Shown piece by piece: positions 12,001-16,872 of a DNA stretch of 16,872 nucleotides. The DNA is taken from NCBI GenBank assembly GCA_042217585.1, contig JBDGSJ010000022.1:1-16872 (forward strand), given 5' to 3'. The DNA comes from Candidatus Nanohaloarchaea archaeon (GTDB lineage: Archaea > Nanohalarchaeota > Nanosalinia > Nanosalinales > Nanosalinaceae). Position numbers: made by a program. How positions within the stretch are numbered: the first letter of the stretch is position 1; each line of letters begins with the position of its first letter.

Positions 12001-15000
12001 TCAGGCCGGGCCAGCGCTCGAAGAACATGGAGGGCCTCTACTACGTCGGCCAGTACACCAACCCCGGCATCGGCGTGCCGATGTGCCTCATAAGCGGGGA
12101 GCACGTCGCGGAGAAGGTGGAGGAGGACCTTGGATAGACTGAAGTACCTGCTCAAGCTTTCCCGTCCCCGTTTCTGGATGTACCTCGCCGGACCGGCGCT
12201 GGTGGGCCTGGTGTACGGCGACCTGTCCGCGGTTCTCACACCTGAAGGCCTGGGCCTCCTCATATACTTTCTCCTGCCGGCGAACATCGCCCTCTACGGC
12301 ATAAACGACTACTTCGACCGCGACATAGACGAGGAGAACCCGAAGAAGGAGGAGAAGGAGGAGGTCTACCGGGGGGCGCGCTGGGTGGACCTGACCGTCG
12401 CTATATCCGCGGCGCTCTCAATTCCCGTAGCGCTCACGCTGTCCTCCCGGACCTGGCCGTGGTTCGCCGCCTTCCTTTTCCTCAGCGTGGCTTACAGCGC
12501 GCCTCCCCTCCGGTTCAAGGCCAGACCGTTCCTTGACTCGCTGAGCAACGGTCTCTACCTGACCCCGTTCGTGATAGCCTACGTTCACGCCGCGGGAGGT
12601 CTGCCGCCGGTGGAGGTCCTCGCGGGCGGCTGGCTCTGGACCATGGCGATGCACACGTTCTCCGCGATACCGGATATAGGTCCGGACAGGAGGTCCGGGG
12701 TCGAGACGACCGCTACCTTCCTCGGGAGGGAGAGGACCTACGGTTACTGCACCGCGGTCTGGTCGCTCTCCGCCGTCTCCTTCGCCACTCACTCGGCCCT
12801 GCTCGGCGCCCTCTTCTCTTTCTACCCCCTGCTCTGCGCCGCCGTCTACCTCTCCGGCGTGGAGGACTCGCGCGCCTACTGGTGGTATCCGTACATAAAC
12901 GGCCTGACTGGGATGGTGATAACGCTCTACGGACTGAGGGTGCTTGTCGGTGGATAGGCTGGACCGGCTGGTCTCGGAGAACAGGTTCACGATAGCGGTC
13001 CTTTTCCCTCTTGTCGGAGCCCTGATGTTCGTCGCGTCCGCGGAGCAGATGCTTCCCGGACCCCTCTCCTTCAACCCCTACCTGATTATCCTCGGCACAG
13101 TGGTGATGAGGCTCCCGCTCATAGCCGGGCTGGAGCCGCTGATGGACCGGAAAGCGGTCCTGGGGCTCTCCGCCCTCACCCTTTACGCCTACCTCGTCGA
13201 GTACGTCGGCATCAGGACCGGGCTGCCGTACGGCGAGTTCGAGTACCTGGTCCAGCTCGGACCGATGGTGGAGGGAGTGCCGCTGGGACTCCCGGTCTTC
13301 TTCATACCCCTGGTCCTGAACTCCTACCTGCTGGTCAGGCTGTACGACCCCGGGAGAAGGTTCCGCAGGATCGTCGCCGTGATAGCCGCGGTACTGCTGA
13401 TAGACGCGGTCCTGGACCCGGCGGCGGTATCCCTCGGCATCTGGACGTACGCCTCGGGCATCTACTACGGCGTCCCGGTCCAGAACTTCCTGGGATGGGT
13501 TCTCAGCGCGGCTGTCGCGACCCTCCTGCTCGAGTACTCTCTGGACGGGGACGCGCTCAGCGAGAGGCTGGTATCCACGGACTTCATGCTGGACGACATG
13601 GTCAGCTTCACGGTCCTCTGGGGCCTGGTGAACCTGTACTACTTCAACATCGCACCCTTCCTCGTCGCCGCTTTATTCGCCGCCGCTCTCTGGAACGCGG
13701 ACAGGTTCAGCTTCGTCTTTCAGACGAGGTAGCCTCCCAGGTAGACGAAGAAGCCTGTCAGGACCGCCAGCGTCCCGTTCCACGCAAGCATCACCAGCCT
13801 CTCCGTGCTCATTTCCAGCTCCCTGTCTCTCAGTGTTATCAGGACGATGGCGGCGAGACCGCATCCCAGGACCGTGAAGACGAAGCCGAAGGGTGATCCA
13901 AGAGTCGGCGGAGGGACGAAAGGTATCGCGGACGCGTAAAGCAGACCGACCAGGAACTCCGGCCTTATATCCGGGCCGTGGCCCTTCAGGGAGGCGAAGG
14001 TCGCCAGCGCCGAGGCAGACACCAGCGCCTCCATGAAGAAGACCGCGAGCAGGTTCAGCACCGGATCCGCCATCAGCTGTATCCTCGAGCTGAAAAGCTG
14101 GATTTTCAGCGGAAACAGGAAATCGGGCGGCACGCCGGTGAAAAGGTCCCCGAAGGAGTGGGACAGCAGGCCGATGAAGACCGCTGGTATGAAGTCGTGC
14201 CAGCTGACGTACCTCTCCGACAGCCGGGTCAGGGCCAGCCCCGAGAAGAGGAAGACGCCCATCACGAAGCCGGCGACAGGGCCCGAGGTCAGGATACCGT
14301 ATCCCACGCCGGCGGAGAGGACTGCGGTCTCGGCGACGGGGTCCCTCAGCCTGTAGTAAGCCGAGAATGTTCCGGCGGCGAAGAAACCTGTCAGGAGGCT
14401 GTGGGTGATGCCGCGGTGGACTCCCTCCGAGGCCTCCCAGAACGACCTCATGAAATGTTCCGGACCGGTGCCGAACACCACCGCGACCTCTTTCCATGCG
14501 TAGATTATATCGACGTCCGGCAGGGCCGCGAAACCTCCGGCGACCAGTCCAGCCGCCACAGCCCTCCGGTCCTCCAGCCCGTACAGGTGTGAAAGCAGAG
14601 CCACGGCTGTGAACGCCAGCAGGCCGTGGCCGATTATCATGAGGGACCTTCAGTCCGGAACGGGTAAAAAACGTGGGTCTGGGTTGCTCTGGAAGATAAC
14701 GAGCTTTCCGTCCACCATGAATGCTCAGGAGCGCTCAGATTTTCTGAAATATAAAAAAGGAGGAGTGGGAAATGTTCCCGCCTCTGGGATGCGGACTTGT
14801 CTTGTTTTCCCTCTTTCCAGGGAAGTTCCACAGGGTTTCCGACTTATGGATCGACGTTCAGGGTGCTGTGAGCGTTTTCGGTCCTACAACCTCTCCAGTC
14901 TTGAATCGTAGCTTATTTGGTCCGTGCTTTTTCCCGGAAGGTGATATGGCCGGCGGATTTCGGTTGGGTCCTGTCGCCCGGGGCCCGCTGAGTTGCGAGC

Positions 15001-16872
15001 CAGGCCAGGTTTCCCCAACCTACTAATCCTGTATCAAAAATACAGGATATTCGGCACGGAGATAGTCTGATAGAAAACGCTCGCATTACCCCTGGCACGT
15101 TGCTCCATTCCGGAAACCGGGCCATGGGCTATGCGAGTCATATCTCTATATTGCGCAGCAGGGTTTATAAAAGTTTGCGACCAATAAGACGGTTTCATCC
15201 GGAAACGCCCTCACCCCTAACGAGAGCGGTGCTTCTCCACGAACTCTCTGAAGGACCGGTAATCCTCGCCCGAGACCAGCCGCTTGAACGGGTCCCTGGT
15301 CACCAGTGCGGTCCTGACGCCCGCTCTTCTCCCCGTCAGGAGGTCGCGGACCGAATCGCCGACGTAAACGAAGCTCTCCTTTTCCCGGCCCGATTCCCTG
15401 ATTATGGCCTTCAGGCCCGACGGATCCGGCTTCCTGCCGTACTCCTCTGGTCCGACCACGCGGTCAAGCAGCCGGTCCAGTTCCAGCTCCCGGACCTTCA
15501 CCTCCGTGCTTCCCGGCGGGGAGTTCGTCAGCCCGGCGGCGCAGAAATCACGGTCCTCCAGGAACTCCCGGACTCCCGGCGAGAGCCTGATAACCCCGTC
15601 CTCGATAAGCTCCCGGGTCTTGTCCCGGTGCCAGTCGGCGTAAAGGTCCTGGAGGTCCTCGGCCTCGGAGATATTCGAGTTCCACGGCAGGAACTCCCGT
15701 GTTATCCTGAGCGCCGGCCCTATGAAGAGGTCGGAGTTATCGATTATGGTGTCGTCCAGGTCGAACACGTAGTTCACGTCTCACACCTTCCCGATCAGCT
15801 CCCGCGCCCTCTCCATCTCGTCGCTGTTCACCTCGTGGCTGGACCCGGGGTAAAGCTTCTTCTCCAGGTCCGCGCCCAGGTCCTCCAGCACGTCCGCGGT
15901 CTCCTCCACCCTTTCCCGGGGGATGTGGGGGTCGTTCTCGCTGCAGCCGACGAATGCCGGGGTGCCTTCCAGGTCCCCGCTGTAATCCCGGACCTGGTCT
16001 CCTATCAGTCCGCCGCTGAAGAGGACCAGTCCGCCGAACCTCTCCGGGTTGCGCGAGGCGTACTCCGAGGCGAGGCATGCGCCCTGTGAGAACCCGAGCA
16101 GGACCGTTTTCTCCCTGTCTCCGATCTCCTCCACTATCGTGTCTATCTTCTCCAGAGCCGAGTCAAGCTCCGGCTGATTGGCTTCACGCGGCTCCAGGAA
16201 GGACCTGGGGTACCATTCACGTCCCGCTGCCTGCGGCGCGTAGTAGTGCGCATCGGGGAGCTGCTCCGAGAGCCTCATTATGCTCTCCGCGGTCGCCCCT
16301 CTCCCGTGTATCATCACGACCGATACATCTCCTCCTCTGTCGTTCTCCAGCACCTTCTGGTCTCCGTGAGGTTCCATGGTCCTTTCTTGGAAGCACAGGT
16401 ATATCACTCTGTGGACGGAACCTGTTACATGACAGATGAAGAACCCGTAACCGCTGAAAGACCTGAAACGACGCTGAACACCTCCGGAGTCGACCACATC
16501 ACGATATGGGGGAGCAACGAGGAGGACACCATCGAGTTCTACCGGGACGTGCTCGGGATGCCGCTGGTCCTCCGCCAGCCCAACCTCGACGACCCGGACC
16601 AGACACATCTCTTCTTCGACGCCGGCGACGGAAGGATAATCACCTTCTTCGTGAGCGACGACAGGGACTCGAGTAGAAGCCCGCAGAGGGGAGGGGTCGG
16701 AGCGGTCCACCACATCTCGTTCAAGGTCTCCCCGGACCGCTTCCAGGACGCGATAGACGCGCTCGAGGAGGACGGCCGCAGCTTCAACATGTTCGACCGC
16801 GGGATATTCCACTCCCTGTACACCCACGACAACAACGGACTGGTCATAGAACTCTCTGCTGACAAGTACGAG

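Follow-up and report, generated by a model that had tools for sequence, protein, structure and literature searches.

A conserved structured RNA gene of the Nanosalinaceae with a predicted leaderless 35-codon frame

The RNA gene and its fold

The window analysed here is a 16,872-nt stretch of a Candidatus Nanohaloarchaea archaeon genome (G000; family Nanosalinaceae). On its minus strand, from position 15141 to about 14753, lies a conserved folded RNA gene with a total length of about 390 nt (predicted transcript, about 389 nt), in which a core of about 210 nt is followed by a G-poor, CA-rich tail and then by an oligo-T run (Table 1). The genome-wide survey's note had proposed a new stand-alone RNA gene with its own promoter and outside Rfam, and this proposal is borne out by promoter conservation, by the Rfam negative and by the distribution obtained with a covariance model. 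The evidence thus supports a new stand-alone structured RNA gene that has its own archaeal promoter, is restricted to the Nanosalinaceae and is unmatched in Rfam.

Table 1. Features of the RNA gene, in window coordinates
Feature	Position	Strand	Remarks
BRE-like purine-rich element	15173..15178	-	GCAAAC, consensus cGAAAC; directly upstream of TATA box; read from the sequence
TATA box TTTATAAA	15164..15171	-	Spaced 30 nt from the start codon in 48/50 copies
35-codon mini-ORF, peptide MTRIAHGPVSGMEQRARGNASVFYQTISVPNILYF	15034..15141	-	ATG 15139-15141, stop TGA 15034-15036
P1, long hairpin	15080..15137	-	Starts 4 nt after the AUG
P4, long-range helix (tentative), 5′ strand CUCCGUGCC	15053..15061	-	Codons 27-30 of the mini-ORF
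P2, 9-bp hairpin AUAUCCUGUAU-N5-AUACAGGAU	15026..15048	-	Stop codon of the mini-ORF in the loop
Junction AGUAGG between P2 and P3	15019..15024	-	Invariant in 38/38 sequences, most divergent included
P3, 21-pair bulged hairpin	14962..15020	-	Most conserved module
P3 apical loop CAACUCAG	14988..14995	-	CAACU.AG invariant in 38/38 sequences
CGAAA directly 3′ of P3	14958..14962	-	From the 38-sequence alignment
G-poor, CA-rich tail	14759..14957	-	Gene-free in 25/25 loci; motifs common to most
P4, 3′ strand (in tail)	14920..14928	-	
Complementary segment (in tail)	14861..14893	-	Complementary to 15059-15091
Oligo-T run UUUUUU	14753..14758	-	First T-run past the core; in 24/25 loci at similar distance

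The promoter box named in the survey was confirmed as the TATA box of Table 1. The BRE-like element is conserved across an upstream alignment of 50 copies, with the first T of the TATA box exactly 30 nt ahead of the start-codon A in 48 of them. The box thus spans positions -30 to -23; given the distance normally seen between archaeal TATA boxes and start sites, transcription is predicted to begin at the AUG or right beside it. A promoter that initiates at the AUG or one base before it would yield a leaderless message.

At the other end, the survey had seen no terminator T-run, but one lies about 170 nt farther on than the end that it had assumed. This run is likely to be an archaeal terminator and marks the predicted 3′ end; both transcript ends are predicted positions. 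Total lengths to the T-run in the 24 of 25 loci that have one are 277–313 nt or about 366–436 nt, apart from a computed 530 nt at one of these 24 (G029), where the rule skipped the first T-rich stretch. The survey's constant length of 216 nt therefore stands for the conserved core, but not for divergent copies (188–270 nt) or for the whole gene.

A single RNA-library contig from a relative (X1, 185 nt) gives a weak hint of expression. It covers the core and has an end at the position equivalent to 15142. This one contig is the only RNA-library match, has a depth of 3.7, ends inside P3 rather than at the T-run, and could be DNA carry-over.

The fold described in the survey was reproduced on a gap-free, minus-strand alignment of 23 sequences and 210 columns (A1), for which RNAalifold gives 39 pairs, 16 of them with compensatory change. 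Pairing is found in 98.1% of 897 cells versus 90.8 ± 0.5 after shuffling, and 60 cells are changed on both sides versus 17.2 ± 3.0 (in both cases, 0 of 500 shuffles as high). When the partner strands of the core helices are slid, pairing is 27.8–43.7%. The alignment also contains G·U pairs at columns 142–165 (U·G in 23/23 sequences) and 129–177 (G·U in 16/23), which identify the minus strand as the RNA strand and so confirm the orientation chosen previously.

The base of P1 consists of nine covarying pairs (15128–15137 with 15080–15089), eight of which are changed on both sides, and the helix is a stable closed hairpin in all 36 sequences (mean z -2.9). Eight of the nine P2 pairs are invariant in the 23 canonical copies; the earlier description of P2 as invariant holds for these, but divergent copies carry compensatory or G·U changes, such as CCUGCA/UGCAGG in G001 and one G·U pair in G026. 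No second copy of P2 occurs in the G000 assembly when up to two changes are allowed. The third module, previously drawn as a branched stem, is instead a single bulged hairpin according to RNAalifold. This hairpin, P3, has double changes at 8 of its 21 pairs, and its base covaries extensively in divergent copies. Among 38 sequences, the sixth base of the P3 loop is C in at least 90%, and in the CGAAA motif the GAA is invariant while the C and last A are each kept in at least 90%. The invariant loops hint at a binding partner, but the complement of the P3 loop, CTGAGTTG, has only nine sites in the genome, none of them convincing as a target.

A long-range helix, P4, is more tentative. Its 5′ strand (15053–15061) pairs with the tail at 14920–14928, and the equivalent helix of relatives has compensatory changes. 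In a search for this helix the cognate tail ranked fourth or better in 12 of 24 cases. Among 13 sequences, 70.8% of cells are paired versus 33–46% for slid partners and 18 cells are doubly changed versus 9.7 ± 2.6, values that lean in favour of P4 because these 13 were picked for predicted pairing there; the helix was not found in G016, G049, G006, G036, G038, G004 and G023. Another part of the tail (14861–14893) complements the 3′ strand of P1 and the linker (15059–15091). The two segments form a 33-nt inverted repeat (I1) of 73% complementarity, with a duplex energy of -41.2 kcal/mol (z -4.6).

The negative result of the survey against Rfam was upheld, with no match at gathering score in the whole window; for positions 14600–15300, Rfam 15 at E ≤ 10 returns only three chance-level matches (E 5.7–8.7), far under their gathering scores. 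Known RNA classes were also considered individually. Archaeal RNase P RNA (RF00373) has no match in G000, and in 35 of 49 relatives it matches other loci (in G032, position 914713 versus 416613 for the RNA described here). The archaeal SRP RNA (RF01857) of G000 sits elsewhere, at C6:29374-29645 (125 bits). For a box C/D or H/ACA guide the only match is a chance-level snoR122 (16.4 bits versus a gathering score of 36, E 5.7), and UAA or UAG takes the place of the candidate box C/D UGA of the P2 loop in some copies. A tmRNA or tRNA-like RNA was rejected as well: ARAGORN finds zero genes in the window, and the frame here begins with a 5′-terminal AUG.

The 35-codon frame

The survey had called the RNA possibly dual-function on account of a 35-codon frame. 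That suggestion is strengthened by two properties of the frame, which is selected to stay open and starts at the predicted 5′ end. All 36 canonical copies keep it open, whereas only 2 and 3 of them are open in the other two frames; over the same columns those frames contain 1.5 and 2.7 stops per sequence and frame 0 contains none. Thirteen mutually divergent representatives are all open in this frame, with a joint shuffle probability of 10^-7.65. Eight divergent copies retain a frame of 30–38 codons, which stops in the P2 loop in seven and just behind P2 in G001. Indels of 3 nt (two events, in G028b and G028c), 6, 9, 15 and 60 nt all preserve the frame; the 60-nt insertion, in L125, is itself in frame and open. 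The stop codon occupies a fixed place in the P2 loop, where TGA, TAA and TAG are the only variants, whereas the three loop bases preceding it vary freely. In one metagenome copy (L130), a 1-nt deletion shortens the frame to nine codons. Judged from these alignments, the frame is under selection to remain open, and it is probably translated.

The peptide follows a different pattern. Column entropies at the three codon positions are 1.23, 1.40 and 1.31, and 12 independent close pairs differ 42, 66 and 72 times at these positions, with 30 synonymous and 52 non-synonymous changes. Compensatory changes in the stems alter residues, for example from MTH to MIG. The peptide has no relatives among 1.84 billion protein representatives and no Pfam family. 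At the level of codon comparisons, its evolution is nearly neutral. Here a frame has stayed open over deep divergence, although its amino acids drift and its codons are shaped by pairing, an unusually clean evolutionary case that separates being translated from encoding a protein.

A translation-table-11 ORF listing reports a 54-codon frame at 15034–15198, whose start lies upstream of the TATA box. Gene callers should drop spurious longer frames of this kind over the RNA.

Neighbours and distribution within the family

Promoter geometry, the T-run and neighbours on either strand argue that the RNA gene is a unit independent of its neighbouring genes. Of 23 loci, 14 have the downstream ORF on the same strand and 9 on the opposite one, and the downstream genes are heterogeneous (YdjM, Na/Ca exchanger, PEBP, glucose/sorbosone dehydrogenase, YjeF_N and others). 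In the two loci inspected for this purpose (G000 and G033), the next gene has a TATA box of its own that lies past the T-run and about 27 nt ahead of the ATG. Pfam domains of 88 neighbouring proteins at 25 loci include no transposase, integrase, TnpB, IscB or IS110.

The earlier count of family matches, 24 of 49 other genomes by a blastn-type search, was reproduced, and a covariance model detects the RNA in 27 of the 49. It is missing from 22, including the single-contig genome G012 and five others that are at least 92% complete, and is therefore dispensable. A single copy is found in G000 and one full-length match in most genomes; tandem copies occur in G027, G028 and G019, the second copy in G019 being devoid of a TATA box and an ATG. 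A tree of RpoB domains shows one major clade of 26 genomes, 20 of which carry the RNA, and five of the six clade members lacking it are metagenome-assembled genomes less than 86% complete. Copies from the same genus mostly cluster together, and gene order around the RNA is preserved within genera. The survey's view that the RNA is gained and lost freely does not fit housekeeping neighbours without transposase or integrase and near-universal presence in one major clade.

Possible functions and rival readings

The reading to which we give roughly even credence, taken as a whole, is that the RNA of about 390 nt is an independent transcription unit of the minus strand and has a dual function, in which translation of the mini-ORF would unwind P1, P4 and P2 beside a conserved effector hairpin, P3. 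The BRE/TATA promoter would fire at the AUG or one base earlier to give a leaderless message, whose first 108 nt would hold a 35-codon frame that passes through three helices (P1, the 5′ strand of P4 and the 5′ arm of P2). Beyond the stop in the P2 loop would come AGUAGG, P3 with its loop CAACUCAG, the CA-rich tail supplying the 3′ strand of P4, and the oligo-T terminator. The effector would be the RNA itself, whose P2, P3 and invariant single-stranded motifs would be bound by a putative protein or RNA partner, and the mini-ORF would be retained for the act of translation, not for its peptide. On its way from the 5′ AUG to the stop codon, a ribosome would have to open P1, P4 and one half of P2, and on halting its leading edge would reach the base of P3. 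Being translated would toggle the RNA between closed and open forms, thereby coupling its activity or stability to the translational state of the cell. We infer both this translation-driven switch and the partner of the RNA. A bolder version, possible though doubtful, is a ribosome-gated riboregulator unique to one DPANN family, in which the peptide would be irrelevant and the P2–P3 domain (with AGUAGG, the P3 loop and CGAAA) and the CA-rich tail would be switched between hidden and exposed states.

The open frame could also mean that the 35-residue peptide is the product, with the helices and the long 3′ part serving only to tune how stable its mRNA is or how fast it is translated. The predicted leaderless AUG behind a strong promoter agrees with this, as does a slight synonymous excess (30 of 82 single-base codon differences versus about one-quarter expected, a rough estimate) and a fairly constant C terminus, S-N-L-N/F-I-L-Y. 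However, that C terminus is invariant at the nucleotide level, with zero synonymous change, as expected of a P2 arm. Conservation is far higher in the non-coding 3′ module (80–91% identity) than in the coding part, whose centre is saturated, a third-position pattern is absent, stem covariation overrides residues, and the searches for protein relatives were negative; we consider a small-protein gene rather unlikely. The main reading in the survey's note, a purely non-coding structured RNA, would explain the covarying helices, the invariant loops and the unconstrained peptide, and would make the open frame a by-product of composition and structure. Against this stand the stop-free frame 0 beside two interrupted frames, the in-frame indels, the restriction of the stop positions to three triplets next to freely varying bases and an AUG fixed at the predicted 5′ end, which together leave that reading with little probability.

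Two further readings were considered. In the first, the RNA is a cis-acting leader whose peptide controls the downstream gene by attenuation. A T-run behind a structured leader with a short ORF recalls bacterial attenuators, and the next ORF is frequently on the same strand; but opposite-strand neighbours in 9 of 23 loci, downstream genes that share no function and the separate TATA box of the next gene at the two inspected loci make this scarcely credible. The patchy distribution and tandem copies would follow from a mobile or selfish nature, whether as a MITE-like unit, as a type I toxin–antitoxin locus or as the orphan guide RNA of a transposon-encoded nuclease. hok-type toxin mRNAs have a short ORF, a tight fold and a fold-back helix, and the RNA described here resembles them in its small ORF within a compact fold and in the long-range helix between coding and 3′ regions (P4). 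It differs in its mostly single full-length matches and housekeeping neighbours and in its peptides, which by inspection are polar and basic, without a hydrophobic stretch, and not membrane-like; no antisense gene was identified. A transposon-derived origin (MITE, or an omega or bridge RNA) is also at odds with the single G000 copy, with the absence of any such domain next to the RNA and of terminal inverted repeats bracketing the unit in a repeat scan of 14600–15300, with the lack of matches in 2.9 million viral contigs and with the local gene order kept within genera. We regard a mobile or selfish element as highly improbable.

Among known systems, the dual-function reading is closest to bacterial small RNAs such as SgrS/SgrT, RNAIII/delta-haemolysin and SR1/SR1P and to the spRNAs of Methanosarcina mazei. 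The Nanosalinaceae RNA, as a predicted short independent transcript, would share with them a small frame combined with conserved RNA structure. It differs from dual-function small RNAs in that its peptide is nearly unconstrained while the openness of the frame is strongly kept, and in that the frame is predicted to be leaderless, runs through three helices and stops in a hairpin loop; the Rfam negative indicates no sequence or structure relationship. The trp, erm and tna leaders are bacterial leader-peptide attenuators or translation-dependent RNA switches. As in these, it is the translation of a short ORF, not the peptide made, that would reshape RNA structure downstream, and alternative pairings involve the ORF; unlike them, the Nanosalinaceae RNA has no regulated downstream gene and no enriched regulatory codons, and it has an archaeal promoter, a likely archaeal terminator and predicted leaderless initiation. 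The combination of a strongly conserved RNA fold and an open 35-codon frame with a freely changing peptide is without earlier description.

A class of dual-function or small-protein RNAs is reported in bacteria and archaea (PMC12612679, PMC12310071, PMC11456600, 10.1101/2025.10.28.685009). In the literature searched, non-coding RNAs of nanohaloarchaea receive only a passing mention of one conserved intergenic sRNA. This is STRG.4577.1, a 266-nt conserved expressed intergenic sRNA attributed to 'a member of the Nanohaloarchaea', to which the article gives one sentence and a supplementary figure (Gelsinger et al. 2020, mSystems, PMC7002113). By description it is of similar size and from the same class of organisms, and it could be the same RNA.

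The RNA ranks among the most conserved non-coding stretches in many nanohaloarchaeal genomes, and the family merits addition to RNA family libraries. Nanohaloarchaea, tiny and salt-loving, live as obligate symbionts and have genomes of about 1 Mb. If the ribosome-gated model is true, the translational status of a symbiont would directly control an RNA-based regulator, the first translation-sensing RNA of such a kind described in Archaea. A real switch would bring the logic of leader peptides into a stand-alone archaeal RNA whose translation starts without a leader, and would offer a handle on how reduced cells sense their own translational state.

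Gene boundaries and promoter

The RNA region lies as a single copy in the source genome between two minus-strand genes, one for a HAD-type hydrolase (15217–15777) and one for a YdjM-type membrane protein (13720–14640). The genome-wide survey's note had presented it as a structured RNA that is found in 24 of 49 other Nanosalinaceae genomes and is unknown to Rfam. Both statements hold: BLAST reproduces the presence in 24 of 49 (the best matching stretch is 14939–15054 of the window), and a search of the whole window with Rfam 15 yields no match at the gathering score, with three chance-level matches and nothing else at E ≤ 10 on 14600–15300.

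In copies of the RNA gene, the first T of a TTTWWAAA box is located exactly 30 nt upstream of the A of the start codon in 48 of 50 cases and at 31 and 36 nt in the remaining two; 49 copies begin the frame with ATG and one with GTG. A purine-rich BRE-like element lies upstream of the TATA box, and a T-A step is found at the start. The usual archaeal distance from TATA box to transcription start would place initiation at the AUG, so the RNA is predicted to be a leaderless transcript beginning there. A listing of ORFs with genetic code table 11 contains a 54-codon frame (15034–15198) whose first codon precedes the TATA box; the conserved start is an internal ATG at 15141, and an automatic gene caller could report the longer frame as a hypothetical protein.

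Features of the RNA gene in the source genome
Feature	Position	Strand	Basis
TATA box	15164–15171	minus	
ATG of 35-codon frame	15139–15141	minus	
Proposed P4 helix, unusual CUCCGUGCC × AGCACGGAC	15053–15061 × 14920–14928	minus	complementarity

The length of 216 nt proposed earlier describes the conserved core, and the full gene is longer. The nearest ORF of at least 80 codons is at least 200 nt past hairpin P2 in 25 of 25 loci. This space is filled by a G-poor, CA-rich tail with the shared motifs ACGCUGCC, AAAACC and A(A/G)GGUGAU, which ends in a T-run in 24 of the 25 loci. Measured from the AUG to the T-run, the gene spans roughly 366–436 nt in 17 genomes; lengths from the AUG of 277–313 nt are found in six others (G003, G004, G006, G007, G023 and G038), and the value of 530 nt for G029 arises because the rule missed the first T-rich stretch of that genome. 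In the source genome the gene has a predicted length of 389 nt and a predicted end at 14753.

In both loci read for it (the source genome and G033), the T-run is followed by a TATA box belonging to the next gene, and the downstream ORF is on the opposite strand in 9 of 23 loci. Furthermore, 88 neighbouring proteins that were scanned have ordinary and varied functions, with no transposase or integrase among them. Thus, from the T-run, the promoter of the following gene, the opposite-strand ORFs and the varied neighbours, the RNA gene is probably a separate transcription unit rather than a leader.

The tail motif A(A/G)GGUGAU of the relatives (for example, at L065:6380–6420) is a Shine-Dalgarno-like word enriched before gene starts of the source genome, where GGTGA precedes 48 of 601 crude gene starts compared with 13 in a background window. 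A second ORF behind GGUGAU was rejected because no conserved start codon follows the motif in the tail sequences read. G029 and G027 carry in place of the motif sequences complementary to the upper portion of the 3′ strand of the P1 hairpin in the same RNA.

Covarying helices and constant loops

A gap-free alignment of 23 sequences (210 columns) gives with RNAalifold the 39 pairs claimed in the survey, 16 of them with compensatory changes. The pairing statistics were likewise recovered: 98.1% of 897 cells are paired (90.8 ± 0.5 in shuffles), 60 cells have changed on both sides (17.2 ± 3.0 in shuffles), and pairing drops to 27.8–43.7% once the 3′ partner is slid. The assignment of the RNA to the minus strand also stands, in that its G·U pairs (for example, U·G at columns 142–165 in 23 of 23 sequences) correspond to C·A mismatches on the other strand, and folding is better on the minus strand (z of −3.67 versus −2.45 for the plus strand). 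The third module, P3, is by RNAalifold a single bulged hairpin, not the branched structure described in the survey.

All 36 sequences form P1 as a stable closed hairpin that begins 1–4 nt downstream of the AUG, with a mean z of −2.9 and values below −2 in 29 of the 36. Just before P2, a linker corresponding approximately to ORF codons 26–31 is complementary to a segment of the tail, forming the proposed long-range helix P4. The tail segment lies around 100 nt after P3 in G033, G034, G032, G029, G019, G037, G027 and G028, and nearer to P3 in G000 (the source genome), G022, G045 and G003. The partners co-vary, as in CUCCAAGCU/GGCUUGGAG, UCCAAUCCG/CGGAUUGGA and CUCUAUUCCG/CGGAGUAGAG, and in 12 cases the cognate tail ranked fourth or better among 24 tails. 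In 13 sequences selected for having predicted pairing at this place, 70.8% of cells are paired, compared with 33–46% when slid, and 18 cells have changed on both sides (9.7 ± 2.6 expected); P4 is tentative because of this selection. A helix of this kind is missing in seven genomes.

Full-length minimum-energy folds contain P1 in 12 of 15 cases and linker–tail pairs in 12 of 15. In the source genome, a 33-nt inverted repeat that is 73% complementary (15059–15091 with 14861–14893) joins the tail to the 3′ strand of P1 and the linker, and this duplex displaces P1 in the full-length minimum-energy fold. Such competition with P1 suggests that the RNA of this genome may adopt alternative folding states. 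A mutual-information scan of 36 sequences reveals only the known helices. An alternative helix enclosing P2 (CCAAUC:GGUUGG) was dropped on inspection of the alignment, as it is not kept where the base of P3 has changed in G021.

Hairpins P2 and P3 persist across 38 sequences with covarying stems. The P2–P3 junction AGUAGG and the loop CAACU(C/A)AG are retained in 38 of 38 sequences, including the most divergent, as is CGAAA following P3; the geometry of promoter and AUG and the frame that ends at P2 also persist in the most divergent sequences. With stems that vary and loops that do not, the pattern suggests that a putative partner recognizes the loops. Nine sites for the complement of the loop exist in the source genome, none of which is convincing as a target; one of them, before a doubtful 109-codon frame, was judged to be due to chance. 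The assembly contains no second copy of the P2 motif.

An open frame with a drifting peptide

The 35-codon frame that starts at the AUG and stops in the loop of P2 is open in 36 of 36 distinct canonical copies, compared with 2 and 3 of 36 for the other two frames. Among 13 representatives that are less than 55% identical in variable columns, all 13 are open, with a joint probability of 10^-7.65 when variable columns are shuffled. In eight divergent copies detected with the covariance model, TATA box and AUG are retained together with a frame of 30–38 codons, whose stop falls in the P2 loop in seven of the eight; in G001, two stops directly follow P2. Canonical copies use TGA or TAA as the stop and G030 uses TAG; the three loop bases preceding the stop vary freely. 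In a metagenome copy (L125:446–715), 60 nt inserted between P1 and P2 fold into two small hairpins; the insertion is in frame and open, and extends the frame to 55 codons. Exceptions are metagenome locus L130, near-identical to L128, which has a 1-nt deletion, and the second G019 copy, which is degenerate and lacks both TATA box and ATG. Coding beyond the stop, whether by read-through or in a second ORF, was rejected, as the post-stop frame ends after 14–100 codons at unrelated places.

The main rival explanation is a fast-evolving small protein encoded by a heavily structured mRNA. Column entropy is 1.23, 1.40 and 1.31 at codon positions 1, 2 and 3, and in 12 independent close pairs there are 42, 66 and 72 differing sites at these positions; codon changes of a single base number 30 synonymous and 52 non-synonymous. 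Peptide residues are replaced outright where compensatory changes occur in the P1 stem, and the seemingly conserved C terminus I-L-Y is the P2 arm, invariant at the nucleotide level. The 35-residue peptide has no match among 1.84 billion protein representatives and belongs to no Pfam family (two chance matches with E of 0.13–0.14 lie below cut-offs). Judged from these comparisons of sequence, the frame is selected to stay open and the peptide itself is not conserved.

Distribution, identity and a possible translational switch

The covariance model of the RNA finds it in 27 of 49 family genomes and in none of 20 genomes from four other families of the class. A broader model of P2–P3 only, built from 38 sequences, adds none of the 22 negative family genomes. 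There are 19 metagenome loci and no matches in viral contigs. Same-strand tandem copies occur in G028 (three, C60:1358–3299), G027 (two, C70:1576–2302) and G019 (two, C1:601838–603556, the second being the degenerate one); divergence among tandem paralogues far exceeds that among orthologues. On a tree built from an RpoB domain (373 residues), the family falls into two clades, both well supported. Of the 26 genomes in the first, 20 carry the RNA, and five of the remaining six are 68–85% complete. The second has it in 8 of 24, with canonical forms in genera g21 and g13, divergent forms in g2, g11, g16 and g20, and absence in g4–g8, g10 and g19. Presence and absence on this tree force at least nine changes of state. 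In the RNA's own tree, copies group for the most part by genus, and g15 and g18 contain several lineages. These patterns fit a gene that is old in the family and has been duplicated, lost and perhaps sometimes transferred; the RNA is dispensable.

A carotenoid (bacterioruberin-type) gene set occupies 8762–13732 of the window and comprises a polyprenyl synthetase, a phytoene synthase, a phytoene desaturase-like oxidase, a UbiA prenyltransferase and a Caroten_synth-family protein. Because G032 has UbiA and Caroten_synth genes directly upstream of the RNA, the RNA is loosely syntenic with the cluster in two genera. Elsewhere, two adjoining paralogues (951–3005) each have a lysylphosphatidylglycerol-synthase transmembrane domain, and two group-1 glycosyltransferases lie beside them.

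A divergent or shrunken RNase P RNA was worth testing because the source genome (89.7% complete) has no match to RF00373 at E ≤ 10. This identity is rejected: RF00373 matches 35 of 49 relatives, and those compared are at loci other than that of this RNA. Most of these matches score below the gathering score, and at E ≤ 1 none is found in any of the three g12, two g16 and two g2 genomes (G019–G021, G030, G031, G001 and G002), including the single-contig G019 of g12; the Nanosalinaceae seem to have a very divergent RNase P RNA. The SRP RNA of the source genome is elsewhere, on contig 6, and ARAGORN detects neither tRNA nor tmRNA in the window, which rejects SRP RNA and tmRNA as well. The RNA gene is real, new and restricted to the family.

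Only two public sequencing runs contain a small share of the RNA's words (0.04 each); their sequences cover only the equivalent of 14958–15054 in a relative and none of the tail, and are uninformative on absence. The core of a relative's copy is covered by one 185-nt contig from an RNA library, which extends 88 nt past 15054 to the position of the predicted start, a weak hint of expression. An expressed, conserved intergenic RNA of 266 nt, STRG.4577.1, was reported for a nanohaloarchaeon (Gelsinger et al. 2020, PMC7002113); it may or may not be a member of the present family. Searches of the nanohaloarchaeal literature on non-coding RNA, on transcriptomes and leaderless transcripts, and on small proteins and sRNA yielded no description of this RNA, although supplements may bear on that.

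A ribosome that binds at the 5′ AUG would have to open P1, next P4 and next the 5′ arm of P2. Termination would then occur in the P2 loop, where the leading edge of the ribosome would lie at the base of P3. Because the frame is kept open exactly to this loop while the peptide is ignored, we infer that ribosome passage itself may be the function of the 35 codons. The RNA, which is a member of no described family, would work most like a dual-function small RNA whose fold depends on translation. Ribosome passage would switch it between a closed form, in which P1 and P4 are formed and the tail is tied back, and an open form, and would thereby make a P2–P3 effector and the tail responsive to translational activity.
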